DNA of 64,000 bases, from the NCBI GenBank assembly GCA_030141605.1, contig JAQGDQ010000627.1, positions 1-64,000 on the forward strand, written 5' to 3'. This stretch comes from Tubiluchus corallicola (taxonomy: Eukaryota; Animalia; Priapulida). The notes under the pieces are model-generated. The model was given only the letters and a program-made list of their open reading frames with translations, was not told the DNA's origin and did no database searches. How positions within the stretch are numbered: position 1 is the stretch's first letter; every line of letters starts with the position of its first letter. Positions 798-60,300 of the stretch are shown one piece after another. A program made the position numbers and the translations under genes.

Positions 798-3700
798 GTC
801 TTTCCGAGTTGGACTCACAATATCTTTTGATTACTGGTGGAACTTGTATGGATTGGAATATGTAAGCATTGTGATGCAACATTTAAATTAAACATATTTC
901 GCCTCATGTAAAAGTTCAAAAGTTGAAATTCAAAGCTGATAATCAAACGTTTACAGACGTATAAAAATTTTCGATCTTGATACACACAAAAATCAACAAT
1001 AGCTAGTTTGTGTATTTCATGAGAAATAAAAGTATGTAGCTTATTTAAGTTTTATTTTATTTTTGTATAAATATCATTTGTACATTCCTCAAGTGCAGAA
1101 ATGTTGATCATAAAATACTATTGATAGGACACAAATGAATATGCTGATGCCATTAAAGCTTGCCACAAAAGGGCTGCTGACAACATCCTCCGAGGTTGCT
1201 TGCAAAACGGCGGTTTATACATTAAACTAGGGCAGGGCTTAGTATCAATGAATCACATACTACCAAAAGAATACACTGACACACTTAGCGCTTTACAAGA
1301 CAAGGCACTTATCCGGAAAACTCATGAGGTAACAGAGTCAGCTTACAAGTTCTGTGTTCTAGTAACTGCTATGTGTTAGTATCTTATGATTTTGTATACA
1401 ATGTTTTTCAGTTTTTTGCTGGGTTGCAATAAGTTATGAATCATCATGGTTTTCGTGGAATAGATTTAGAATGTCTTAGATGGTAATAGGTGATTTAGCA
1501 ATAATAGTAGATTATAAGTAATAATAAATCTTAGGTGATTTAGGTCTTTGCAATTTAAAACACGTGCTACTCCTAACGTATACACGATATAGTTTATGAC
1601 AAAATTAGAACGTGTGAGATTGTATTATGCATAGGATTTGTATTTAATTTGTGTTTAAAGTTAATATGTAAGTTTTTGCAAATGATCATTTGCTAAAAAC
1701 ATCTTGAGGATGTTTTTCTAAATCATGGTTAACTTTCTTTTAAGTCTGTTGATGCTTGTATCCTTTTATACTTATAATAATTAACCCGCTGTCACGAATA
1801 AGGTCGTCATAAGAAACCTAATTAAATCAAAACAGACATGAAGTTTTTGACCATTTTTTGTAGTTTTAGCTTTCCCTGGTCTGTAATGTCTCATGCTTTT
1901 TCTAATTAAAAGGGAACTGACGTGTTATTTTCTTAAAAGCTACCACTTTCTGACTATTTCAATTACAAATTTCAGTTTCAACTTCAAAAAATTTATAAGA
2001 CTTTTTAAAGTTTAAACATAATACTAGTATTGACAATATATTGATGTATATAGATATGTATTATGCACAGGCAGTTCAAGAATAGAGATGGGTTAGAGTC
2101 TAATTTTATTTCATACATTTCCAAGCCTGATAGGTATTAAATAGTACGGCATGATGCTTGCTATATTTGACAAAAGTAAACTGGTTATCATTAATGTCAA
2201 TCAATGTAGGAGAATTGTATTTTTGCAATTTTACACCACTTGGTAACATTTTTAGATTAGCTTTCTGCTCTGACACAGCCTAGGGCATTCGGTTTTGTAA
2301 ATTATGGTGAGTCTCGATACATAGACAGCAGGATAATAAAGTAAAACTTTGACGGATGTAGTGCAAAATTTAACTATTGTACAAATAATTAATCATTTTA
2401 TAATTATTATGGACTGATTTTCTTGCTGTAGGTGGAGCAGTTGTTTTTAGAGGATTTTGGAAAATTGCCTTCTGAAGTGTTTCATAAGTTTGAAGATGAA
2501 GCCATAGCTGCTGCAAGCTTAGCACAAGTTCACATTGGAGAGTTAGAAGATGGGCAGAAAGTTGCAGTTAAGGTTATTATTTTATTTTTGTTACCTGAAA
2601 ATCCCGTGTTCATCGTTTCATCACTGCAAAAGTAATTTTTGTTACTTTGAAGGTTATAATAACAAAGCTATTAAACGAATAAGCAAAGCAGAACTGAAAT
2701 CTCGTTTTAGCACAGCAGACCAAAATTTTGGGCATTTTAATACTTTCTGGATAATCATTGGGCATTTTGACACTTTCTTTTTTGATTATTAAATATTGGA
2801 TGTGAATCAATTGGAATTTTCTTTCTGGTCAGCTGTTGTGCAAAACATCCTGCTTTGGCCTAAGCTGGTCAAACCAGAAGCCTTTTAGGGAATATTTGTT
2901 GCCCCGCAAAAAAGTCTGTTTCTCCCAGAATTACTAATTGCAATCGAATCCTATATTCTCATTGCTGAAATACTAGAATCAGCTACTGTTCCAACCTAAA
3001 TTTTATCGGGTTAGTTGTTTTGCATATGTGTGCTTGCAAACCAAAACCGTCCATAAGTCGGCATAATTGAAACTACATTATGATGCTAAAAAGTAGAAAG
3101 CACCAAAAATTTGGTCAAATGTCGATTTTTTTACTTTTATGAAAGCAAATGCTAAATATATTGGACTTTTATATTCTAGCATCAAATTATCAGAAAAATG
3201 TCTAAAAAATACTAAAATCTAATTTTATAACTCCTTACCCTCTTTTCCATCTAGAAGCTAGTGCTGCATTTGTAAAAGACTCGTATTTTCTAACTCCAGT
3301 TGTAGCGAGTGGAAGCAGCCATTTTGCTTCGGGGTTTTTCTGTTGACAAGACCAGATCTTCATGAAGAAAAGTCATCTACTGGATTTAAACGTAACTTCA
3401 ATTTACTCTTGTAAAGTCCATAGCAAGCACACTCGTACGGTTGCTAAGTGTTTTGTAGAGACGCGAGAAAAAACATTGGCTAACTTTAACAGCGTTTTTC
3501 TCAAGATTACATTCTTCAGTGCGTAGCCTGCACCTCAATTTCAATGTGGATTGTCTCAGCTTAGAAATAACATAGAGCGATGAGCTTGGTATCAAAATGT
3601 TCCTCACAAGATGGAGATCCAGGATATATGAATAACTAGAAAAGCTTAATTGCCGACTTGTGGACGATTTTGTTATGCAAGCACACATATAATTTGCAAA

Positions 3701-6700
3701 AATCTAAACAAAAATATTTTGTAAGAAATAGAAAAATGTGGTTTTAGTGGAAGGTTTAATGGTATTAATTGGTGTTGAAATAAAGAATATTCAACGTAAA
3801 AACCAGTTTAGAAATTTGAACACCAGGTGGTAGCTGATTGTGTAGTTTTTATAGCTACTCTGAATAACGTACATGTTTTATTACTTTTAACAGGTGCAGT
3901 ACATAGACTTAAGAGATAGATTTTCTGGTGATATAAGAACATGTGAGATTTTGTTAGACATCATTGCATGGATGCATCCCACGTTTACTTTCAAATGGGC
4001 ACTACAGGTAAAGTACTTAAATATAAAGGGTGAAGCTTAAAGGGCTCGAAAGCTATGCCCCTCTCTTCTCCCCACAATATTCGTTGCTTTTTTGAAACGA
4101 AATGACTTCATGTGATGTGCTGTTTTTTGAAAATAAAGTTATCTAAATCTAACATCTAAATCTAAATGGAAATGTGAACTAAATTAAATGAGACGAAGAA
4201 GGAAGGTGGGTGAGACTTGTTTTTTTATACGAACAAGGCCTTTTAAGCCACTTGATAGTCTCATTGACTGTGCAAAGAACATGGATAATAGTCTGTAGTT
4301 TGTAAATTTACATTATATTGAACCAAAAATTGTTGCTTAACAAATTGCACTTCAATGCTATTTCAGTCATGCTGTGGCTTTTGTTATTGTCATATTGTAG
4401 TCTATGCTTACAGAAATACAAAAAAGCAGTGAGAAATTGTAAAGGTTATACTTTGATCTACAAATGGAATTTTTTAACCAGCTGTATTCTAAATATGTTA
4501 AACATTTCTAATTTTACACCTAACTTCCTCACCGTGATTGTACAGCAACAATATTAGTGAGCATCTAACAGTAGAAGTCAAATTTAAAGGTTTAGCCTAA
4601 GAGGCACAATTTGTGACTGTGAAAGAATAGATGCTTAAAAGTCACAATCTCCCACTTAATTTATTAAATTTGACTTCCCTTGTTATGCTCATTACTATTG
4701 CTGGTGTACTGTTACTTAGATTTCATAGGGAAATGAAAATTAGAACTTTTTCATGTTATACTTTTTTATAGAATGTGTCCAGGATCCAGGTAATATTTTA
4801 ATGTGGCGAGTCTTAATTCCACAATACAAAATGTTTCCTGCTGACATTTTTCAGGATCTAAAGGGTAATTTAGCAAACGAGTTAGACTTTGAGGAAGAAG
4901 GCAAAAATGCTGAAAGGTGCAAAAGAGAGTTGTCCGACCTGAAATATATTTACGTTCCAAGCGTTATTTGGGAAAAATGCAGTAAGGTAAGCTTATTTTT
5001 CAAATTCTTTGACTTTTCAAGCTGTGTTTCACTTTGTGATGTAATTGATGTTGTGTATAAATCCTGAATGCTAGACAGTGTTCTGAAGATTGCTCTGCAA
5101 TTTCCTGCCTAGGAGATTTGAAAAACACTTTTTTCCAGTAGAGTTTTTGCATTGTGATAAGGTTAGGTGAATTTCTTGAATGGCTTTACAAGCCTTTACC
5201 ACATGAATGTGTTTTCTCAGAACTTTTTTGTAATGGTATTTTATGTCTGCTTTTGCAGCGTGTTTTGACGATGGAATACATTGAGGGCTGTAAAGTTGAT
5301 GATGGGGAAGGAATTGTTAAACAAGGAATTTCTCTGAAAGATGTAAGAACGTGCTTTGGCTTTTCTGATTATTAGTGAAAATTTGCATACAATATTAAAA
5401 TGGTTTCTATGCGGTCCTGCAATTATCCGTTAAAATAATTATCCGTTTTTTTCTTTTTAATTCTTATATTTTAACACCATTGCGGTTGTTACATATAAAA
5501 GAACATTTGCAATGCTTGTTTATGAGGAAAACAATGTGTTTAAGAAGTTAGTAATGCGTAAAGGGAAAGAAAGGGCAAATTGAAAGTATGTCCCAAAAAA
5601 ACTTTCCACACAAAGTTATATTACTTAGCATTATGCTTACCTGTTTGAAATACTTGCATAATTAGAAAAGAGAATTCTTGATAAATTTAAATATTTGTTT
5701 CAATTGATAAAATGTCACTGAATCATCTTTCCAATGTGCACCACATTAAAAAACATGTTTTTAATCTTATTGACAACCTATGGTATATTATACTTTTGCT
5801 AAGTTAGCAAATAGTGTGCTATGAATGCTCTGATTATTTTCCGAAGTTTACGAAATGTTATCTAAACTGGTTTCAAATGACCTACCATAAAATGCCTGCG
5901 CCTAAAGTTCATCTCTGTAAATTTAAATTTACAAACTTTATACAATGTTACTATTAACATAAGCTTTCTATGCAATAAGGCAGCACGTAAGTGATATAAA
6001 ACTTCTAGATGTTTTTTAGCTTTATGTAAGTAAAGGGTTTTCGTTGCTTTAAATATATGCACTGCATTACACCATGTGCTTAACTGTTTCTTCGATGTTT
6101 ATTTTAAGTGTTTTTATTTTTAGGTTGATGAAAAGTTGATAAAGGTATTTGCTGAGCAGATTTTTCATACTGGATTTGTACATGCTGACCCACACCCAGG
6201 AAATGGTAAAAATCTTTTTTATAAATCAATGAGCAGGTAGACTAGACAAACTTTTTTCGTTACTGAAAAACGTGTCAGTTTTTGAAAAAAAATTCTTAGA
6301 AGTGAATTATGAAACTCTTTATTGTGATTGTTTTGCAGCTAAAGTTGATACTTTGACTCCAACTTTTTTCACCAATTTTTTTGCACACTTTCTCTTTCTG
6401 TTTTTGTTTTACTAGTAAGTCCACAAACATGCTCCCTCATACTTCTTTAATGCTAGAAGAAAACAATAGAGATGCCTTTGTGTAGTTTTTCATAATGCTT
6501 CACAAATTATCTGTCTGTTTTTCATAAACTTATTTGTGCGCTTACATTTTCCCAACAAAACTGTTTTTAACATACAATTCATGTAAAATTAAACAAGAAA
6601 GCAACTTTATTTTTTCTGAAAATGTAATTATACGTTTTTAAAAATCTCGTGAGATAAATAATGTAATTTTTTTGTTCATATTTAGTGGCTATTAGGACAT

Positions 6701-9700
6701 TGCGTGTGTGTTAGTTAGCATAATTACATCTATCAATTATGGAATTGCAAAGGGAATTACAACAGTTATAAAAATGGTTGTAGCTAATCTATGATTTATT
6801 GAATTTTTCTTTCAGCTTAGTATTAGGTTAAAATGATTGCAAGATCTTTTGTTGTCAGTATGTTGTGATTTTCAAATTAAATTGCCGTCGTTGCAAGATT
6901 TTTCCTGATATAATGACTGTGAAAGTGTGAATACGTATAACTGAAGTTCATAAGCTTCAATTTCAAGTGTTATTGGAAATGCAAAGGTGCATAAATTTGC
7001 AATAATTTTTTTCCACGTAACAGATAACAATTTCTACGTTTCAGTTTTAGTAAGAAAAGGCAATGACGGTAAGGCTCAGTTGGTGCTCCTTGATCATGGA
7101 CTTTATGACTACTTAAAACCTGAAAACAGAAAGTCATTAAGCAGGTTATGGAAATCCATTGTCCTGAATGATCACAATTTAATGAAGAAGTATGCTGGTG
7201 AACTTGGAGTAGAAGGTACTGTGTATTCTTACAACTGTGATTTACAATAGAAGACCCTTCACAGCTCATACATTTACCTGGTTTAGCTAAAACTTTGTCA
7301 AGTTTTGTGCCTGACTGCAGGTTATAAATACTGTCATCAATTTCTGGGTTTAATTTCTGGACCAAATTCACACATTGGACGACATGTATAACCTTTAGAA
7401 AAATCTATGAATTAACTGTTCGTTTTTAAGTTTTGATTATTCAAATTAATTCTACACAAACTTTAGTAGTTGTACAAATAAAAACGTATCGTACGTATTG
7501 CTAACACCATCCTCACAATTAGTCAATTAAAAAACCTAGGTAAAAGCCTAGTAAAATATTAAGATTTTAAATGTACATACTGTTGATTTAAATGTACGTT
7601 TGTATTTACATGATCTAAATCCAAAATTTATTGCCTGAAATATCTGCTAATGCATTTCATAAGTAGTACACATGTTTGCTGTTACTGTGGTATGGCTACG
7701 TTGATTAGTATGATAAGAAAACATGTTTACAAATTATGACTGGGAGTTTAAGTGTAATATTTTGTTTCTTCTTTTTTATTTTCACATTGTGGTTAACCAT
7801 TTTCTGGACTTTATATCTTTTCAATGCAAAATATTACTCGCTTGAAGTGCCTCAAACTTCTGTTTGTAATTCATTGGTTTATCAAGTTTTTAGCAAGTAG
7901 CATGTTTGGTTTAATGATGATTTCAGAATACTACATGTTCAGCTGCTTACTAGCACACCGTCGTCTTCCCTTTCCGCCGGAGGGCCACAAGTTTCTCCGC
8001 AGGAATCGGGAAGAATACAAAATTATGAGTAAAGCAGACAGGCGAAAGTTGCGGGATGTGGCACTAGAAACTTTCATGCAAGTTCTAAAAGATATGCCCT
8101 CTCCTTTACTACTTATTCTTAGGTATTCTTCACTGGAAATTAATATAGCTATTCTCTGCACAATTGGCAATATTGTATTTCTATTTAAGGTGGAAAGATT
8201 TCTTACTCTTCTTTCCTTAACACTGTCACATTATACCACTAACGGTCTGACCACTTTGTTCGCACTGCAGATAGCCAAGTCCATTTCAGACCAGGTTTGT
8301 GTACAATTCTGCACTCGCAGACTATGTGCATGCACAAAGTCTGTGACAAAGTGACCGAGCTTGCTCTGTAAAATGCAGAAAAGATCAGAAACTGTGCGGC
8401 CCAATGACCAGTCTGTTCCAGTATCTTTTGCTTTCCGGCAAATCACATCAATTTAAAATGTACGACGTTTAATGTGCCATATGTGCATGAATCTGCCACG
8501 TTCATTGTGCATGGCAAAAAAGCATTTTATTTGATTGGCAAGAATGTCGTAAGCACTAGCTTCCAGGACCGGAGACTGGTTTGTGTGTGGAATTCTGTCC
8601 AGAGCAAAGCTGTACCGAGTTTACCCGTTAAAGATGACGAAAAACATTGCTAGTGCAAATCAGACATGAGTCCAATACAGTCCTGGATTGCCTGTTTTGA
8701 AACTGCATTGCGAGAGTTTTGTATTTTATGAAAACTCATTCGACGGAAGTCTGACCATTTTCAGATTATTTCATATTTTCTGAGATGCTGATGCAAAGAC
8801 CATTACATCGCAAAACGGTTTACTTGCCAAATAAGCTCACTGAGAAGGATGTGCAATACATGCGTAAGATGGCAAGCCAACATATGGACCAAATTATGGT
8901 TAGCTTGAAATCGATGCCTCGATCTATGCTACTTGTATTCAGGTAGCCAAGCATTTTGTTCGAATTCCTGTTTTTTTTTGTTAAAATTTTTGCTAAAACA
9001 TTTGCTTTAGAGATTTTGCTTATTCTGCCACAGTTTTTTATAGGCCAGTAGCACAAGATGACTGAATGCAGTTTCAAAATGGGTTTGTTACTTTTTTAAC
9101 TATTTGTTGTGAATCAGTTTGAAAAGAGACTAGATTTGGAGCATTGTTTTGTTAAAAAACATAAAATTATGTCAAGTTTGTTATGATTTCTTGAACACAA
9201 GTTAATAACTATAATCACACTTAGTCTCTTTTCTACATGTGCCAAGAAATTTACCTTTTTTATATTTCTCTTCGCATTTGCATGACTAAATCAACCATTT
9301 TTTTTAAATTCTTTTCTTTTCGCTTGTTTTGTTTTTAGACTTTGGTGACAGTTTGCTCAGGCTTGTTCTTAGATTTAGATTTATTTCTAAGATGTTCATT
9401 CTAAAATTAAAACTAAAAGCCACACAACACCTGTGGATGTTTATTTCACAATTTAAATTATTAAAGTTATTTTCGCTTAGTTGTCAACTTAATGCAGTGC
9501 ATTAAGCAAGTGACACTGTGTTTGAATACAGCAGTGCAGATGTGACTACAGTCACGTGTTATTACACTTTTTGCATAGTATTTTGTGTTAGTTTATGGTG
9601 GTTTTTTAGGAATATCAATACTGTAAGAGCTATCACACGTGAACATGGTAACCCTGTTGATCGATATGTCGTAATGGCAAAAGTGTAAGTAATCTTTTTA

Positions 9701-12700
9701 AAAGTTTTGCTTTCTATTGGGTGAAGTACATAAAAAATGTTACGTGTTATGTAGCTAGCTAATATAAAACTATTGGTTTTAACAATAGTTTAACATTGCT
9801 AAGAATAGCCCTATATCTAAAAATTATTCGAGAAAACTTAGTAACACATATTATAATCTTATGTTGACAGTTTCAGTATTCAAATACATGGAAGAGCCAG
9901 CCGCTAAGAATTAACATGTTGTTTATTAGCGCAGATTATCGTTTCAACAACAACTGTCATTTTCGATGCTATAAATCAAGGCAAAACAAATAATTAGTAC
10001 AATAATGATAATAGTAATAATCGTAGTAATAAAAAATGTGCTAATTATTTGTTTTGACTTGATTTATAGCATCGAAAATGACAGTTGTTGTCGAAACGAT
10101 TGTCTGCACTAATAAACAACATGTTAGTTTCTACATTGTTGTGCAATAGTGCTAGGCCTAAACTTAACTCTAAAAAATGATGTCAAGTCCATTTTACCTT
10201 AATCATTTTTAGCAGTTTTGTCAAAGTGCCTGTAAGCAGCTTATCATTGATAAATTATCAAATGTTTCCCAGTCACAGGAGCAAATACTATAATTACAAG
10301 GACAGTAGCTGCCACAGTTATTCCCATCAATTAAGTCCTTGTACTTTTGCTAGTGCAATTTGTTTGCAGAATTAATTTTTACATCAAATTAAAATTTTGA
10401 AAAAGTAGGTCAAATCTTTTGGCTGCCAGTTATATTGTATATAAGGTTTTTGTTTGTATTGTTTATACTCAGTATTCTTAGATGCCTTTCGTCAAATGTA
10501 TCTATGAAAAGCAAAGTGGCAATAAACTATATTACACAAGAGGTTTCCTTATTTTGCACAAATTGCTGTAGGAAAGCAGTATAAGTAATGTGCAGTAGCC
10601 CGTATGTTTTTGCGTGTTTTGTCATGTATGGGTCTCCCAGCTCACATCAGTATGTAAACTATGTAAAATGTTTCCAAATTGTAAATTTGTGATGTGGGTT
10701 AAACGAAAAAAATAAAAGTTGTAGCAGGTTGTTATTTAGCCTTGGTGTAGTTGTAGCATAATTACTTCAGTATATCTGACCCACTATGTACAGAATTAGC
10801 GTCATGTTTCTCTGAAGTCATTGAGAAATTCAAGAAACTAGCCGACTTCATTGTAAATGTTGCACTGCAATGAAAAAGTTCTGTTTTTTATGGATTAGGG
10901 GATGTCACAACGTCTGTGATTTATTACTAACAGAAATTGTTAAAATTTTATTATCATAAATACAAAAAAATTACTTTATATATTAGTGGGACTATACTTT
11001 TTAAAAATTTTGGCAGTTTATAGAACTTAGTAAAAGAAGGTATTAAGTGTTTTTCATTATTTACTGTATGTGTTCGGTTAGTTCTTTGCTGTACACATAC
11101 ATTATTTTTCTTTACATTTTCACAGGGCTGTGAGAGGAAAATTTGGCAGGAAAAATTTGTCATTTTGCCAGCGATTGTTGACCATTTGGGAAAGTTTGAA
11201 GTTTGAGTATAAACTCAGGTATGTGACATAATTTTAGCATGTAATTTTATTTTTAGCACGTGAATGATTACTGCTGACACATAAGTTTAGCATGTGATTT
11301 TGGCACGTGAATGATTACTACTGATACATAATTTAAGCATGTGATTTTAGCACGTGGATGATTACTGCTGACACATAAGTTTAGCATGCGATTTTGGCAC
11401 GTGAATGATTACTGCTGACACATAAGTTTAGCATGTGATTTTGGCACGTGAATGATTACTGCTGAAACATAAGTTTAGCATGTGATTTTGGCACGTGAAT
11501 GATTACTGCTGACACATAAGTTTAGCCTGTGATTTTGGCACGTGAATGATTGCTGCTGACACATAAGTTTAGCATGTGATTTTGCACGTAAATGATTACT
11601 GCTGAAACATAAGTTTAGCATGTGATTTTGGCACTTGAATGATTACTGCTGACACATAAGTTTAGCATGTGATTTTAGCACGTGAATGATTACTTCTGAC
11701 ACATAAGTTTAGCATGTGATTTTGGCACGTGAATGATTACTGCTGACACATAAGTTTAGCATGTGATTTTGGCACGTGAATGATTACTGCTGAAACATAA
11801 GTTTAGCATGTGATTTTGGCACGTGAATGATTACTGCTGAAACATAATTTTAGCTTGTGATTTTGGCACGTGAATGATTACTTCTGACACATAATTTAAG
11901 CATGTGATTTTAGCACGTGGATGATTACTGCTGACACATAAGTTTAGCTTGTGATTTTGGCACGTGAATGATTACTGCTGACACAAGTTTAGCATGTGAT
12001 TTTGGCACGTGAATGATTACTGCTGACACATAAGTTTAGCATGTGATTTTGGCACGTGAATGATTACTTCTGACACATAAGTTTAGCATGTGATTTTGGC
12101 ACGTGAATGATTACTGTTGAAACATAAGTTTAGCATGTGATTTTGGCACGTGAATGATTACTGCTGACACATAAGTTTAGCATGTGATTTTGGCACGTGA
12201 ATGATTACTGCTGAAACATAAGTTTAGCATGTGATTTTAGCACATAAATGATTACTGCTGAAACATAATTTTAGCTTGTGATTTTGGCACGTGAATGATT
12301 ACTTCTGACACATAATTTAAGCATGTGATTTTAGCACATGGATGATTACTGCTGACACATAAGTTTAGCATGTGATTTTGGCACGTGAATGATTACTGCT
12401 GACACAAGTTTAGCATGTGATTTTGGCACGTGAATGATTACTGCTGACACATAAGTTTAGCATGTGATTTTGGCACGTGAATGATTACTGCTGAAACATA
12501 AGTTTATCATGTGATTTTAGCACGTGAATGATTACTTCTGACACATAAGTTTAGCATGTGATTTTGGCACGTGAATGATTACTGCTGACACATAAGTTTA
12601 GCATGTGATTTTGGCACGTGAATGATTACTGCTGACACATAAGTTTAGCATGTGATTTTGGCACGTGAATGATTACTGCTGAAACATAAGTTTAGCATGT

Positions 12701-15700
12701 TATTTTGGCACGTGAATGATTACTGCTGACACATAAGTTTAGCATGTGAATGATTACTTCTGACACATAAGTTTAGCATGTGATTTTGGCACGTGAATGA
12801 TTACTGCTGACACATAAGTTTAGCATGTGATTTTGGCACGTGAATGATTACTGCTGACACATAAGTTTAGCATGTGATTTTGGCACATGAATGATTACTG
12901 CTGAAACATAAGTTTAGCATGTGATTTTGGCACGTGAATGATTACTGCTGACACATAAGTTTAGCATGTGATTTTGGCACGTGAATGATTACTGCTGAAA
13001 CATAAGTTTAGCATGTGATTTTAGCACGTAAATGATTACTGCTGAAACATAATTTTAGCTTGTGATTTTGGCACGTGAATGATTACTTCTGACACATAAT
13101 TTAAGCATGTGATTTTGGCACGTGGATGATTACTGTTGACACATAAGTTTAGCATGTGATTTTGGCACGTGAATGATTACTGCTGACACAAGTTTAGCAT
13201 GTGATTTTGGCACGTGAATGATTACTGCTGAAACATAAGTTTAGCATGTGATTTTGGCACGTGAATGATTACTGCTGACACATAAGTTTAGCATGTGATT
13301 TTGGCACGTGAATGATTACTGCTGAAACATAAGTTTAGCATGTGATTTTGGCACGTGAATGATTACTGCTGAAACATAAGTTTAGCATGTGATTTTGGCA
13401 CGTGAATGATTACTGCTGACACATAAGTTTAGCATGTGATTTTGGCACGTGAATGATTACTGCTGAAACATAAGTTTAGCATGTGATTTTAGCACATAAA
13501 TGATTACTGCTGAAACATAATTTTAGCTTGTGATTTTGGCACGTGAATGATTACTTCTGACACATAATTTAAGCATGTGATTTTAGCACGTGGATGATTA
13601 CTGCTGACACATAAGTTTAGCATGTGATTTTGGCACGTGAATGATTACTGCTGACACAAGTTTAGCATGTGATTTTGGCACGTGAATGATTACTGCTGAC
13701 ACATAAGTTTAGCATGTGATTTTGGCACGTGAATGATTACTGCTGAAACATAAGTTTAGCATGTGATTTTGGCACTTGAATGATTACTGCTGACACATAA
13801 GTTTAGCATGTGATTTTGGCACGTGAATGATTACTTCTGACACATAAGTTTAGCATGTGATTTTGGCACGTGAATGATTACTGCTGACACATAAGTTTAG
13901 CATGTGATTTTGGCACGTGAATGATTACTGCTGAAACATAAGTTTAGCATGTGATTTTGGCACGTGAATGATTACTTCTGACACATAAGTTTAGCATGTG
14001 ATTTTAGCACGTGGATGATTACTGCTGACACACAATTTTAGCATGTGATTTTAGCACGTGGATGATTATTGCTGACACATAAGTTTAGCATGTGATTTTG
14101 GCACGTGAATGATTACTGCTGACACATAAGTTTAGCATGTGATTTTGGCACGTGAGTGATTACTGCTGACACATAATTTTAGCATGTGATTTTAGCACAT
14201 AAATGATTACTGCTGAAACATGCTTCAGATTAGAAGAGTAGATGATGACTGATCACAACTATGACGAAAACCTGAGAAATACGTATAATTAGACAACCAA
14301 ATCCTACACACAAATAAAAAATAATCAATATTAAAACATTGCAGGTGGTTAATACATAACTTTTAGTAGCTGAAACATGCAAAAATTCAGTGGCATAGCA
14401 ATTATACAGCAGGATCCCACTGTACTGCAAGATCCCTTCCATTTTGGAGAGCCCTTTTTGTCTACAGGTGACAAAACAGAGCATTTACTATCTGGCGGTT
14501 GTATTATGATAACCAACTCAAAGGTGACTATGCCCTTAAACAACTGTCAGAGCTGTTCTGTTTTTTAAGCTCAGTGGCACAGCACCAGCTGGGGAGGTCG
14601 TGTCAAATGGTTGCTGTCCATAAGCATTTAAGTCTGTGCTGCTATCTCAGGTCTGTCTCACTCTGGTAGTAGTAATTATTGAAAGTTAAACCGTACATAT
14701 GCTGAAATAAATTGTCTAAACAGTTTAGATTAATTTGCCTCTTGACTGTAACTCTTGTGTGCATTAAACTGCTACCAAATTTATTGTTTAATGTTAATAC
14801 AATAATTGACTGTCATAACTAAACATAGTAAATAACAACTTCTTTGGCTTATTGATCTAACTTCTCTGACTGCCTGTAAACCACAAATTTGCAAATCTAG
14901 CAGCTTATTTGAGGCAAGAAAAGGGGCAATGAAAATTCTAAAATCAGTCAATACTTAAACCATCTTTGACGTATGCCCACGTATCTGTTGTCTAACTAGT
15001 TAACTTGCTAGGTATTCAGATCTGCTCAGTCAGGGTAAGCTACTAATCTGACTCGAGAAAGTATGTATAAGTTAGCAAAGTACTAGGTTCAAATCCCAAC
15101 TCAATTCACAATTTTTCTTTAACACAAATTAACCGTTAGTTTTATTAAAGCAATAATCTCAAACACGCTTCTGTGAGTAAATTTTTGGTTTGTGGAGAAT
15201 CAAATATATTGTTAACAATAATTAACTTTTATAAATCTGAAGTTTTTAGTTACAACCTAAGCTGATGGAACTTCAAAAACCCTTCTTGCTTCAGCTTAAA
15301 CAAGCAATAGAGAAAAGAAGCCAAAGTTAGACGATATTATTTCACTAATAAGAAAGCTAGGATGATGATGATTTTGGTAATGGTCGGTATGTTACAAGAA
15401 AGTTCTGCGACTGCACTTAACATAAACAACATTAACAACTTCTCAACATAAGCAAATCACATTGTCAAAGATTTATGTCAATTTATGCACAAAGTGTATA
15501 AAAAAGGCTCCTAAAAAAACTCTTAGCTGTATCAAAATATCATATAGAAAATTTAAGGAGCTTCCGTTGTTCTTGCATATATCTGTTCAGGTAGGCAGAG
15601 GGGGAGTGATTTGTGCTCTGCCATCTGGTTAGGATGGGAGGGGATCTCACAGTTGCTGGGGGCCCCACTTAATTTACACCGCTACTAAAAATATTGTATT

Positions 15701-17831
15701 TGATGTATGTAACTCGAATTGAGAGTTACCACATTTGACTGTACTTACTGACCTAACACCAGTTCCTATTAATTTTGTACTAGGCTAATTTAACAAGTTT
15801 TTACAGATTCATACCATTCAAAAGTAGAACATAAATATAACAGAGTCGTTTCACAAGGTTTCTTTATATTAAGTGTAACAGAAGTTACTGCTTAATCATT
15901 TAATATAGTATTTTTATATTTTGTAAATTAAAATGCTTGCCAGTACTGGTTTAGTTATTGACTTAGTAGGCATTAGTTGGTTTTATGCTTTTAATTATTC
16001 CTGTTGTGTTTACTAACACTTGACCGTGGACTGCACAAACAACTTTGATGTATAATGGCGTACGATGTGCTCTAATGGCGACATTAATTTTTAATCACTT
16101 GGCATGCATACAAGTTTTAGCTTAAAATTTGTACACCAAATTTCTCTTCAATTACGAATGTATGCACTCTAAATGCGCCCTATTGAACTCCAAGGTTAAT
16201 TAGTGTGTTAATGCTAGTAACAGATCATTAATATTTCATCATCAGTGCATACAGAAGTCTTCATCTAGAATTCTAGATTAAGGAAAAGCAAATGAAATTC
16301 AGCAGCTGAGTAATGTCTGTTGAGTTAACATATTGTGAGCAGCTGCTAATAAATTATAAATGGCTGGGAGGGTTTCATAATGTGTGTCATAAGCAGTTTT
16401 GAAATGAATGTAAAACTTGTTTGCAAGCAGAAGTGCAAACTTTTTTATTTGTTGCAAATTTGTCCATTCATTTGATAGCCTCTCCCAATAATAATTACTT
16501 CAAAGGGTAGAAAAGGCTATTTTAAAGTATGTCTTAAAAACGTCCCACGCAAAGTTATATTACTTTGCATCACACTTACCTGTTTGAAAGACTTGCATAA
16601 TTAGAAAAGAAAGTTCTCAAATTATTTTAAATATTCGCGCCACCTAGTAAAAGGGCATTGCATTGCTATCCCACTGTGCACCACTCACTCACTAAAAAAC
16701 ACATTGTTGGTGTTACGTTATTGGCAATGTTAGTTAGCAAAGAGTGTGCTACGAATGCTCTTATTACTTTTTCAAACTTTACGCAATGTTATCTACATGT
16801 ATTCCAAATCACTTATTCTGAAAATGGCCGCCTCTAACTGTCTTCGTAGAAGTTTAACTTTACAAGTTTTATGAAGCTGTACTGCTAAAGCAAGCTCTGT
16901 GCACAATAAGAATGGGTATAAGTTATATAAAATTTCAAGACAAATAGTGTTTTCTTGTGCTCTAAAACTAAAGGTGAAAATTTTGACATTTATTTATTAA
17001 TTATTTTACACTGCAAGGTGTTTTCTATTGACCTGATGTCTGATTTAGGAAAACAGCTGTGGAAATATTAAAATACTGGGAAAATCCAAATACAAAGGAT
17101 GGCATTAGAAATTACTTTTGAGTGATTTGAAAAAAATCCCTTTTTAATTTAGCATTAAATTTGATGGATATGTTGGATTTTCATGTTGACGTTATGTACA
17201 AATAAGGTAAATAATAAAAATGTGTCCGGATTATAAAAAGTAGCCATGTAAAATTAAAACCAAATTATAAATATTTTGAGTAGTATTTGACTTAACTACC
17301 GTTTCTCTGAGACTCGTTATTAACACCGTTGATACCAGATATGGTTAGCTGTGAAATATAGCTATTTGCTTGAGGCGCACCGAAATAAAATACTGGAAAT
17401 GGGTAAAAATAAAAAAAGTTAGGAGTGCCCAAAGAACAAATTTTTAAATGAATGGTCAATGTGTGTAAATAAGTAAATTTGCATATGTGGAGTAAACTTG
17501 ACTTCTACTGCCATTCGTTAACACTTGTCATGAAGCGGTAATAAGCAATATATTTTTGATTAATTAATAGTCTGTATGTTTTTTATAGTATTAAGTACCA
17601 AGACTGAAGTGGTGTAACTTGATGTTTATAATTCTTAATAAGTCGATGCTGTCGTATGTTCTAGATTATTATGAATGTGTAATAGTTGTCGAAAAGAATT
17701 AAATAAAAAGTCTTATTTTATGATTCAGGTCTGAGAGCTGGCGAGTTTGGATAGTGTTGACGTACCTGCGAATACTAACGTATTTAGGACGTGCACCTGA
17801 TCTTAGTAAATTAACAACGCAGATGTTATAA
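798..17831 (+). CDS. ADCK5: aarF domain-containing kinase 5 (ABC1/UbiB atypical kinase), 5'-partial, spliced
   Basis: GT-AG exons joined in frame: 798-861, 1128-1328, 2432-2572, 3894-4007, 4855-4986, 5259-5342, 6124-6205, 7045-7215, 8765-8942 (or alternative 7927-8122), 9610-9684, 11126-11218, 17729-17831 (TAA). The translation has the UbiB motifs [44 protein letters not shown] and LLDHGLY, plus ADCK5-type segments [19 protein letters not shown] and RNINTVRAI...PVDRY. Confidence 0.93.
3024..3690 (+). mobile_element. MITE family 1, copy B, ~40-bp terminal inverted repeats
   Basis: Left ATATGTGTGCTTGCAAACCAAAACCGTCCATAAGTCGGCA, right TGCCGACTTGTGGACGATTTTGTTATGCAAGCACACATAT; no transposase ORF. 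Confidence 0.85.
5560..6053 (+). repeat. Interspersed repeat family 2, copy 1
   Basis: Diverged direct match to 16502-16966 (e.g. CAAAGTTATATTACTT..GCAT...CTTACCTGTTTGAA.ACTTGCATAATTAGAAAAGA). Confidence 0.75.
7927..8122 (+). CDS. ADCK5: ADCK5 alternative (duplicated) exon '9A', candidate mutually exclusive exon
   Basis: tttcag acceptor, AG|gtattc donor, 196 nt (phase 1 in, phase 2 out), open frame [16 protein letters not shown]...[16 protein letters not shown], homologous to exon 8765-8942. Confidence 0.75.
8765..8942 (+). CDS. ADCK5: ADCK5 canonical exon '9B'
   Basis: ctgaccattttcag acceptor, AG|gtagcc donor, 178 nt (phase 1 in, phase 2 out), [14 protein letters not shown]...[14 protein letters not shown], matching the vertebrate ADCK5 DYLLFAEMLMQRP...LPRPMLLVLR segment as I recall it. 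Confidence 0.9.
9912..10126. repeat. Long inverted repeat (fold-back element), 90-bp arms
   Basis: 9912-10001 is the reverse complement of 10037-10126 with 6 mismatches; 35-nt AAT-rich loop. Confidence 0.9.
11225..14220 (+). repeat. 47-bp tandem satellite, ~64 units, in the last ADCK5 intron
   Basis: Unit GACACATAAGTTTAGCATGTGATTTTGGCACGTGAATGATTACTGCT; period 47 (e.g. GTGAATG at 11401 and 11448). Confidence 0.97.
16502..16966 (+). repeat. Interspersed repeat family 2, copy 2
   Basis: Diverged direct match to 5560-6053. Confidence 0.75.
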
Positions 17832-22588: not shown

Positions 22589-25500
22589 ATGGCTGCTGCT
22601 GGAAATGGTCTCCATGGAAATTTCGAGGCTTTTGCCAAATTTGGTGACACAAAATCTACTGGGCAGCAAATAAACACGAAAAATTTCTCCAAGTGGCTGA
22701 AAGAAGCAAAAGTGATTGATGGGAAAAAAGTTCAGTCGACAGATGTTGACATCGCCTTCTCAAAAGTCCTCGGCAAAAAGGCAAAGTAAGTTGCATCATC
22801 TTTAAAAAAGAAACGGTTGCGGTTTTTATCATTTTTCTCCTGTATTGATGTTGTTAATGTTGTTAAATTTTTTTTGTCTCCAATTTATCAATCCCCAAAA
22901 AAATTATATCTATGATAGTGCAAAATTAACACATTACTTATAAGGCTAGTTATTTAATTTTTTAGTGTTAGTGATGATGTTGACAATAACGATGGTGATT
23001 GGTGATGGTGATGATGAAAAAATGTTAACTATGATAATGCAAAATTAATTATAAGGGTATTTAATTTCTAATTTTAATATGGGTGATGATGTTGACAATG
23101 GTGACGATGATGATGACGATGATGATGATGATGAATGATGATGATGATGGAAGGTGATAACTATGATAGTGCAAAATTAACAGATAATTTATAAGGGTAG
23201 CTATTTAATATTTTAATATTGGTGATGATGTTTACAATGATGATCGTGATGATGATGGTGTGATGATGATGATGACGGTGATGACAACGTTGGTGATGTA
23301 AACTGGAGTGCCATTACAATCATGTTGGACATTTTGTGACCTAAAGTCACATATTTAGACACTCCAGAATTAATTCGTCAATAATCATGAGTTTCATTTT
23401 AGGTTATTTTACTTTTATTTTCTGCACCTGCAGTTGGACAATATAATTTCTGTATTATATAATTTACTTGAACAGTACATGTTACATTGTGTTTGTCCAG
23501 TTGTATTTGCCAAGGGATGTATGTTAACTAGAGCTGGCATAGAGAACCTGTATGATTCCAGAGTTCAGGATTAAATTCATCTAGGTAGCCTATACAGCCA
23601 AACCTTGGTATAATGCCCCCTCTTATAATGCCAGTCTCACTTAATGCCCAAATTTTGCAACAATACCTATATTTGCATAGAAATATATGTATTAATAGAC
23701 CTTGTTATATAGCACCAAACTCACTTAACACCAACTTTTTTATAGTCCCAAAGTGGTTGGTATGAAGAGGTTTGACTATACATTAAAAATATTAGTATTT
23801 TTAAGTTAAAATAGTTCTTAGACAAACTATAACAGAAGCTTTATATTCTTATAATGTTTCTTTCCTTTTTTGTACTAATTTTTCAGTTGTGTAATTCTTG
23901 TTAATGCAAGACTAGTGCCAGTCGGCAAATAATTTGAAAATTATGTTAACAGGATTTTATAGTTTCACCAAACATTAAAAATAAGATGAAAAACTTCATT
24001 TTTTCATATGATGATGCTGACAGGGGCTCTAAGATGCTTGATTTTAGCGATTTGGAGGCAGCTTTAGATGAAATTGCAGCCCATGTTGCTAAAACTGAGG
24101 CTAAAAAGTCTGGAAAAGCTGAGGACGAAGTGCGCAGAGAGATGGTGGATGGTATGAAGAAGAAGCTGTCAAGTTGCACTCAGCCTGGAACTGCAGGAGC
24201 CACGGTAAGCATAAAACTAATATTCTAAAGCTACTTTCACACACATACACATAAGGCTGCAGGTATTCCACTGTACATGTATATAAATTGTTTCTTTAAA
24301 AAGTTTATTTGTGTGCTTGCAAACCAGAACTGCCCATAAGTCGGTATAGTTAAAACTATGCTATGAAGAATGCACAATGCAGATCTATGTAGAATACACC
24401 AAAAACTGTGTCAAATGTCAATTTTTTGTTTTTTATAAAAAACAAAGTCTAAATATATTGGACTTTTAATTCTAGCATCAAATTATCAGGAATATGTTAA
24501 AAAAAAATTGTAACCTCTTGCCCGCTTCCTCTTTGTCTAAAAACTAGTACTGCAATTGTGGAAAACTCTGTATTTTCAAACTCCAATAGTAGCTCGTGAT
24601 AGCAGTCATTTTGTTTGCAGTTTTTTTATGTTGCGAAGCCCAGATCTTCATCTGAACTAGCCATCTACTGGATCTAAACGTAGCTTCAATGTGTCCTTGC
24701 AAAGTCCATAGCAACCACACTTTCGTGCAGTTGCTAAGCATTTTTGTAGAGACACAATAAAAACAATGGCAAACTTTAAAAGCAATTTTTTCAAAATTAT
24801 GTTTCAGTGCGCAATATGCACCTTTACTTCAACATAGATTATCTCAGCTTAGAAATAACATAGAGCGATAAGACTGGCATCGAAAATGATCCACATGAAA
24901 TGAAGATTTAGGATATGTGAATAACTAGAAAAGCTTAACTGTGGACTTATGGATGTTTTTGCTATGCAAAGCACATATGTAGACAATATAATCAATGTCA
25001 CAAGGTCTTTCATAAACATAATTACTTAGCCCTGTGTAAATGTGTGTATTAAATTTTTGTATATTAACAAAATTTTTTATGCAATGTTTATCATATTAAC
25101 GAAACTATTGAATACTTTTGCCTGTGAATTTGCAGTATTTTCACTGTTGCCTTAACTCTGGAGAACTTTTTAATTAGATATACTGACGAATTATATAAAC
25201 ACAGTTATGATATACTAAGGATCTGGTACTTTGTAGTGCTACTAATGGTTTTAAAATTTCCATCCTGTGATGAAGATAGCACAATTTTAATGACTTACGC
25301 ATTACAAGTTTATCTACACAAGTGTAGAACTGACTTAGAGTTGTCGGCCTACTGATTTATACAGTCATGTGTGCCAACAATTAGTTAATTAGTCTGAATC
25401 AAAATGTTCAATTGAACATCCATTTGATTTAAAAGTTTAGTCTTGCCATAGCATGTGACAAAAAATGCAATATAGCTACACATCCTTTGATAAATGCTGC

Positions 25501-28500: not shown

Positions 28501-29977
28501 TAAAATAGTTCATCACACTTTCTACATTTAAAATAAATAGAAACCTAATCTAATTTAGATTACCAAATTGACATAGTATCTTTTTATACAGGTAGTTTTT
28601 TAATGTAATTTTTGTATGTCTAAGTAATATGCATGAGAGTAAACAGACAAAAGTGCTTGCAAAATAGTTGTTCAAAATAATGAACAGAAAGAAGGGTCAG
28701 CTTTAGTTCATTGAAAATAACAAGTAAAAAACATTTGGCATTGTATTAGTTAACATTCACACTCAGTGTATACAGTCTCTATTTTTGGCAAAGTACCTTT
28801 CTATACAGGTAGTTTTTAATGGAATTTTTGTATATCTAAATAATGTGCATTAGATTAAACAGATAAAAGTGTTCACAAAATTGTTATTAAAAATAATGAG
28901 GAGAAAGAAGGATCAGCTTTAATTCACCGAGAATAACAAAAAAAAGACATTTTGGCATTATATTAGTTAAATTCACACTCAATGTAGACAGTTCGTATTT
29001 TTTAAATAATTGTGATATTGCTTTTGCAGCAAGCTGTTAAAGTTGGTGCTGTTGACAGGCTGACAGACACGTCACAATACACAGGTTCTCATAAAGAACG
29101 ATTTGATGAAAATGGGAAAGGCAAAGGAATGTCGGGTCGAGAACATGTAGCAGACTATGCGGGATACGTTACTGGTTATAAGGAGAAGGATACCTACGAC
29201 ACTCAACATTAAATTAGTTTTTTCTCTTTTACAGTGGGCGTGCCATTTCTTATAAATTTTTGTTACTAATAATTCGTTTACAGCTTTTATATTTAGCATA
29301 AATTCAGTTAAGGCTGTTGTTTGAAGGAAATAGATTTGTGAAATCTGAGATACAACTTCATTTATCTTCATAATTAAATTTTGATAATTATGTCTGTAAA
29401 TACAGAACTAATTGTTATGTAAATATCCCCCTTTTTAACATTACGAGAGAAACTGTTAGCTAGGTCCTATATATGTAGTGAAAAAAGTTCTCTTGGCAAT
29501 TAAATCAAGTTTCTAAAAGTATGTGCAAGTTGATGTCAACATTACTGAAATGTAAACAACACCAACCAGAGCTGCTTCAGCTTTGTTAATTGTACCACTT
29601 TATTATGAATTATGAAATAAAACTGAATTGAAATAATTGCATGTGTTAGAGTACTTTCTGCATACTGAAAGATTAGGTAATATAATTAGATTAAAATATA
29701 ATGTATACAAGGTATCTTTACACATGCATAAGTTTACAAACGTGTCATTTATCCAATCCATAATAATGATATCTATGGACAATTATTGGACATGTGAAGA
29801 ATCTGCAGTGAGCTTATCATACGAATGGTGAATCCACGGCTAATTGATGATGCAGCATTCACTGACTGTTCAGTGTTAATCAATGTTTCCTTCCTCCTTT
29901 CACCTGCCTAAATCTGTGATCCCTCATTATGTGAAGGAATCAGGTATCTTTTTCTTTCACTCACACGCTCTACTCTA

Positions 29978-34387: not shown

Positions 34388-60300
<25,913 letters not shown>

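Follow-up and report, generated by a model that had tools for sequence, protein, structure and literature searches.

A conserved pair of alternative ADCK5 exons in the priapulid Tubiluchus corallicola, with predicted RNA stems and a possible link to a lipid pocket

Tandem pairs of alternative exons are a well-known class of splicing event, and one of the closest described counterparts of the pair reported here is found in an ion channel. As far as the available part of that study goes, the Ca-alpha1T/cca-1 gene carries a tandem exon pair that is conserved over the protostomes, being common to arthropods and molluscs and unseen in chordates; ADCK5, in contrast, encodes a mitochondrial UbiB enzyme, and neither ADCK nor CG7616 occurs in the available text of the study or in its supplementary listings of human and fly cases (PMC9741552). 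At the RNA level, a close counterpart is the exon pair 4.1/4.2 of Drosophila serpent, in which, in the available part of the article, a downstream stem holds the second exon in its loop, suppresses it and is needed if the first is to be used (PMC4691838). At the protein level, COQ8A and COQ8B (ADCK3 and ADCK4) and yeast Cqd2 and Mcp2 share the UbiB fold with the ADCK5 models described below at about 19% identity; the parts of the literature covered describe no such switch in splicing for their genes. The mouse Adck5 event in the accessible part of one report is a retained intron (PMC9467408), and the accessible text of an ADCK review (PMC12193262) makes no mention of the pair. No paper on an ADCK5 exon pair was found in the openly accessible literature searched. 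The RefSeq models X1, X2 and X3 of Priapulus and the pairs in Aplysia, Crassostrea, Daphnia, Hetaerina, Tubulanus and other animals have the same slot and the same A, B and A+B products; these isoforms are the output of automatic annotation, and none of the papers found remarks on the pair, on how old it is, on its RNA stems or on where it lies in the structure. The isoforms are present in RefSeq without comment, and the age of the pair, the stems particular to each lineage and the location over a predicted pocket appear to be undescribed. To our knowledge, few UbiB proteins are as poorly understood as ADCK5, and exon pairs spanning the protostomes are rarely reported. The reading favoured below, with a probability of about 0.72, is that ADCK5 carries a tandem exon pair of which each intact protein uses one copy, that the pair is protostome-wide with a likely single origin, and that the switch is predicted to swap C-lobe helices that likely gate a lipid pocket.

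The pair lies within 64,000 nt of contig sequence from Tubiluchus corallicola (the window; coordinates are window positions on the plus strand). The gene is, judged by its sequence relationships, ADCK5, a member of the UbiB/ABC1 atypical kinase family: Pfam ABC1 (PF03109) scores above the cut-off on three exons, the best 120 of 137 matches in a protein search with exon 2 are all named ADCK5 or hypothetical, the ESM Atlas gives ADCK5/ABC1 clusters only, and ADCK5 of Priapulus caudatus is the top-ranked relative over the constitutive exons. Seven upstream exons with approximate ends were placed by a joined-frame test (exons 1 to 4 at 799-861, 1128-1328, 2432-2572 and 3894-4007; exons 5 to 7 at 4855-4986, 5259-5342 and 6124-6205), whereas N-terminal ADCK5 exons were not identified within the window. 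Constitutive exon 8 (7045-7215; PF03109 E-value 1.8e-07; 41/56 residues identical to Priapulus) holds the DHG motif and the two helices after it, and constitutive exon 10 (9610-9684; 17/24 identical) was placed by a frame test. Two further exons follow at 11126-11218 and 17729-17831, the latter being the last exon and holding the stop codon. In the last intron, a tandem repeat with a 47-bp unit runs to about 63 copies and takes up 3 kb (11251-14221), and introns 3 and 6 carry high-copy interspersed repeats (around 3000-3700 and 5590-6000) with a depth of thousands in run X1; a piece resembling these repeats also lies near the window start. Other tandem repeats are located at 38407-39079 (40-bp unit), 28568-29002 (216 bp) and 57111-57263 (26 bp), and probable exons of further genes lie, for example, near 23950-24225 (plus strand) and 42971-43279 (minus strand).

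Between exons 8 and 10 lie two alternative exons, 9A (7927-8122; 196 nt) and 9B (8765-8942; 178 nt), each open in frame with AG/GT ends, a TTTCAG acceptor and a GT donor. The preliminary description had proposed that both serve one slot from phase 1 to phase 2, that either alone keeps the frame and that both or neither breaks it, and translation of the joined exons agrees on every count. Exon 8 joined to exon 10 through 9A or through 9B is open, and the A and B isoforms each remain open over 11 joined exons from 799 to about 11219. Because both lengths are 3n+1, translation stops five codons into 9B on double inclusion and five codons into exon 10 on double skipping. Three exon junctions are located 3´ of the double-inclusion stop. 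Transcripts with a junction downstream of the stop are subject to nonsense-mediated decay; both aberrant stops have such junctions, and their transcripts are therefore expected targets. In the first step of the proposed mechanism, the early stops that double inclusion and double skipping produce would lead to removal of these messages by decay, leaving single-copy products. A third copy of the exon was not found in the 64,000 nt.

The peptides of 9A and 9B are 31% identical, and each has its own counterpart in Priapulus caudatus: 9A matches the X1 exon at 37/64 positions (58%) and 9B the X2 exon at 38/58, with the remaining exons between 45 and 89% identical. On a profile built from 28 alternative-exon (A) peptides of other animals, 9A scores 31.8 bits, compared with at most 8.4 bits for 500 shuffles. 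The B profile gives 26.8 bits to 9A and 98.1 bits to 9B, and the scores of each exon on the other's profile (25-27 bits) stand well above shuffle maxima of about 6-8 bits. A profile of arthropod A peptides does not favour 9A over 9B (17.6 bits for 9A and 17.9 for 9B). A full-library search with 9A gave two matches, a 73-residue sequence (P0145) that is 58% identical and a further relative of 9A, and a repetitive 1707-residue protein that was disregarded; word-based searches with 9A alone and with 9B alone gave no matches. The expectation that 9A, strongly diverged yet open and with good splice sites, is an old and maintained duplicate is supported by its retention in Priapulus and by the wide spread of its counterparts, which points to a greater age than the sequence by itself could show.

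In the annotated Priapulus caudatus gene, model X1 contains A, X2 contains B, and X3 contains both in a shifted frame (XP_014669950.1, XP_014669951.1 and XP_014669952.1). Nineteen protein pairs were picked by hand among the matches, and the 18 that could be assigned to species come from five protostome phyla, which we take to be one priapulid, ten molluscs, one annelid, one nemertean and five arthropods; Priapulus, Aplysia, Crassostrea, Owenia, Tubulanus, Hyalella, three Daphnia and Hetaerina are among them. The members of each pair differ only in the exon-9 slot: they agree at 147-150 positions of the 150-residue stretch ahead of it, the slot itself differs, and past the slot 15 of the 18 pairs are near-identical, the A form being truncated in the other three. 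Independently of annotation, two spliced, intron-free metagenome contigs from one animal, L001 (with B) and L002 (with A), share 99.7% identity across the 1572 nt that precede the slot and 100% across the 322 nt that follow it. Frame logic, the single-form products of 18 species and this contig pair together support the proposal of mutually exclusive exons. Genomic counterparts were taken from a metagenome scan of 80 loci. In locus L050, which has an exon 8 peptide matching that of Daphnia, an A exon of 244 nt precedes a B exon of 184 nt, both 3n+1; in L011, L016, L042 and L044, A consists of two exons (149+140 = 289 nt) and is followed by a B exon of 190 nt, both lengths again being 3n+1. The slot, the A-then-B order and the phases are alike wherever they are readable. 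The group of animals with small introns (L011, L015, L016, L042, L044 and L058; for example L044 5395-6193) presents the case of a two-exon A cassette alternating with a single B exon. The sampled proteins of amphioxus, two hemichordates, one coral, beetles and a cockroach are all of the B type. Conversely, all five of the Lycorma models examined that contain the slot (among P0085 and P0131-P0135) are of the A type, and the transcript-like sequences L003, L004, L007, L009 and P0104 show the A form only. Next to the B-type proteins of beetles and cockroach, these A-type sequences hint, at the level of what was sampled, at lineage-specific loss of either exon. Two further variants were observed near the slot or upstream of it: Priapulus X4 (P0125) is missing a segment of exon 5, and Biomphalaria X3 (P0028) has a six-residue insert directly before the slot.

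A single duplication near the protostome common ancestor is likely and is the simplest reading of the slot peptides. In a tree of 70 peptides, the 30 A and 40 B sequences are split by one branch with support of 97/97, accompanied by a long-branch warning, and the best trees unite A with support of 97/97, 98 and 84. All eight arthropod A peptides prefer the lophotrochozoan A profile over the B profile, with 20/20 in the reciprocal test, and a duplication confined to arthropods is rejected (p-AU 0.0009, 35-row subset). A glutamate in the first helix occurs in 37 of 40 B peptides and in none of the 30 A peptides, all of which share an aromatic/K-E helix pattern. Mean identity over 18 pairs is 33% within A vs 52% within B, and 9A appears, by these sequence comparisons, to be the derived and quicker-evolving copy and 9B the ancestral-type copy. 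The priapulid 9A probably belongs to this one duplication. The strongest competing account accepts mutually exclusive exons but derives the priapulid 9A from an independent duplication that converged on the pair of molluscs, annelids, nemerteans and arthropods. A clade of priapulid A and B is not rejected by the AU tests (p-AU 0.09 in the 35-row subset; 0.45 with outgroups), 9A is shorter than the other A peptides (66 vs 70-84 residues) and modestly A-like (31.8 vs 26.8 bits), and convergent exon duplication is common according to the available part of one survey (PMC9741552). Against a separate event stand the shared slot, order and phases, the loss of the B glutamate together with the common helix pattern in 30/30 A peptides, and the union of A in the best trees; a second, priapulid duplication is accordingly judged improbable.

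It had also been suggested that motifs in 9A recall ADCK1 and that one gene may encode ADCK1-like and ADCK5-like enzymes, 9A retaining an ancestral ADCK1-like state. The profile comparison lends this no support. On a profile of eight protist sequences, which were labelled by a motif and which we assume to be ADCK1-like, 9A scores 5.1 bits and 9B 22.6 bits, in line with means of 7.2 for A exons (n=30) and 22.2 for B exons (n=40). Trees in which A is forced to join these protists are not rejected (p-AU about 0.68) and score above the free quick tree, so that phylogeny leaves the idea unsettled. Both A and the protist peptides are without the glutamate, and the resemblance likely arises because A exons have lost a residue carried by 37 of 40 B exons. 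Moreover, A was found in protostome-type sequences alone, whereas the sampled coral, hemichordate and amphioxus proteins are B, and the rest of the protein is common to both isoforms, which means that one eighth alone is swapped. An ADCK1-like enzyme produced through 9A is very unlikely on this evidence.

Exclusion of one copy by the other appears to be leaky. Nine of the 11 truncated models examined, from nine species, fit a reading in which A runs on into B with the frame shifted; the fit extends over 58 positions in Priapulus X3 and over 1-6 positions in the other eight, where the tails have 0-5 residues, while truncated models of Biomphalaria (P0019) and Daphnia magna (P0110) do not fit double inclusion. 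These models would also suit a mainly regulatory 9A: transcripts that contain 9A together with 9B would act as poison products through which decay adjusts ADCK5 levels, with the A protein playing a minor part. Such a role is hard to reconcile with the 58% protein identity and open frame kept relative to Priapulus, with the full-length A transcript L002, with the uniformly A-type Lycorma models, from which A alone seems to yield a working enzyme, and with the stop of Priapulus X3, which is away from the position found elsewhere; it is given little credence. A conserved poison stop in double inclusion was ruled out as a candidate, X3 reading on past it. That 9A is a dead copy in Tubiluchus corallicola is hardly credible, with its frame, length and splice sites intact and its sequence conserved in Priapulus and P0145 (58%).

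A run search with a 9-kb stretch listed no RNA run. In run X2, which is guessed to be RNA and is about 94% alike in 9B, one contig joins exon 8 to 9B with a short side of 29 letters, below the bar of 31, and a contig of the run joins 4007 to 4855; 9A is not covered, which counts neither for nor against its use. A 200-nt contig of the same run has a piece of 9B (8803-8829) before a piece of the upstream intron (8646-8719), in reversed order, and may go back to a local duplication in that relative, to a circular product or to an artefact of assembly.

The introns around 9B contain a strong predicted RNA stem of 20 bp. Its 5´ arm (8690-8709) is located in the 9A-9B intron and its 3´ arm (9065-9084) in the intron between 9B and exon 10, and pairing of the two would loop out 9B. 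The stacking score of -31.9 kcal/mol was equalled in none of 100 shuffles (mean -20.8, sd 2.1) and is the strongest among 12 exon flanks (next -23.8) and 85 window tiles (next -28.7), and the pair probability is 0.96 in a 2.6-kb ensemble fold. Inner helices (within 8710-8993: 8710-8748 with 8954-8993, and a hairpin at 8928-8947), which had pair probabilities of 0.70-1.00 and no separate control, are predicted by the fold to cover the likely branch-point region of 9B and its donor. The 451-nt region around 9B as a whole is moderately stable (z -1.82; 3/100 shuffles). Around 9A, no significant stem was found in the window (77/100 shuffles equally strong), and none in L050 (156/200). An upstream stem of the serpent type, looping out the first exon, was thus found in neither locus, and the stem model accounts for the skipping of 9B but not for that of 9A in the B isoform. 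L050 has an unrelated stem of 17-20 bp around B (0/200 shuffles). The small-intron group, in contrast, has long stems around A, with 0/200 shuffles in four loci and 3/200 in L016, where both arms are altered in sequence and still pair; L044 alone hints at both stems (0/200 and 8/200). Alignment folding of six small-intron loci recovers the A stem, but double changes are few (7 of 104 pairs) and the covariation term is unfavourable, and this stem is partly CA/TG repeat pairing, for which shuffles are a poor control. Rfam gave no match in 7000-9800.

The likeness to serpent lies in the two exons, the frameshift on skipping and a downstream stem with the second exon in its loop, with the difference that the ADCK5 stems are predictions and that serpent, in the available portion of the source, has competing upstream and downstream pairings (PMC4691838) whereas in ADCK5 a single significant stem was found for each species, enclosing B in the window and L050 and A in five other loci. 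By analogy with serpent, the second step of the mechanism would have 9B as the default, and formation of the 8690-8709/9065-9084 stem would loop out 9B and allow 9A to join exon 10. Two other routes to exclusion were rejected. Steric hindrance operates where the intervening intron is too short to splice, and the 9A-9B intron is too long for it (642 nt in the window, about 157 nt in L050). Incompatibility of the two spliceosomes involves U12 donors on both exons and a U12 branch point before the next exon; the 9B donor is not U12-like, and no U12 branch motif precedes any acceptor. The 9A donor (8123-8131), which differs from the U12 consensus at one base, can pair over 9 bases with 8010-8018 within 9A, a pairing absent from the ensemble fold.

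The effect of the switch on the protein was modelled with Priapulus caudatus X1 and X2 as stand-ins (pLDDT 81.5 and 85.4; alignments of 32 and 42 rows). Both isoforms adopt a UbiB/COQ8 fold and best match COQ8A structures (Z 29.2, rmsd 3.3, 346 aligned residues), and in both the slot starts at helix 414-422 and ends in a long helix running into exon 10. The A model departs from B in that its loop is modelled with less confidence (block means 77 and 63), a further short helix is present, and a single long helix takes the place of two in B. The proposal that the swap rewrites the helical C-lobe is supported by these models; its placement just after the DHG motif is loose, since exon 8 adds two helices between. 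In the third step of the mechanism, both forms would keep the fold and the catalytic motifs, with a longer, less ordered loop, the extra helix and no conserved glutamate in A. The position of the slot on COQ8B was bracketed from both sides: the DHG motif lines up with D340 and the end of exon 8 with L377, and the last positions of the structural alignment pair model residues 511-512 with COQ8A 644. An ungapped register would place the last slot residue at a conserved arginine, COQ8B R444, so that the slot likely corresponds to about COQ8B 381-444 by register and bracketing rather than by residue-level superposition. A profile of the C-lobe alone gave chance helical matches against the PDB and did not recover COQ8.

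This position is relevant to an ATP-gated C-lobe pocket for CoQ intermediates, described for COQ8B, another family member, in the available part of a single preprint, which involves alpha14, V396, R431, H443 and Y355 (bioRxiv 10.64898/2026.02.03.703536). By analogy, V396, R431, H443 and the gating helix alpha14 would fall within the slot and Y355 outside it. With pocket residues and alpha14 likely to lie within the slot, the fourth step of the mechanism would have the isoforms differ in lipid or quinone handling, not in ATP chemistry. In the accessible parts of two reports, yeast Cqd2, a putative ADCK1/5 orthologue, affects CoQ distribution and moves CoQ out of mitochondria (PMC8346625), and over-expression of fly and human ADCK5 alters mitochondrial shape (PMC6553794). 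A difference in lipid handling between A and B is suggested by the models and is perhaps somewhat less probable than its absence. More tentative still, and rather unlikely as a whole, is the wider proposal that protostomes have kept for more than 0.5 billion years a splice switch that swaps the lipid-pocket lid of a mitochondrial quinone-handling ATPase, with differing cargo or gating, with stems rebuilt around B or A in each lineage and with A or B fixed in some.

Catalogues based on human and fly, in the available part of the one consulted (PMC9741552), miss the ADCK5 pair. A natural swap of 60-80 residues kept in five phyla marks an evolutionarily tunable segment of the enzyme and provides matched pairs with which binding in the C-lobe pocket may be probed. 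The compact loci with strong flanking stems would likewise serve as small models of RNA-structure-guided exon choice.
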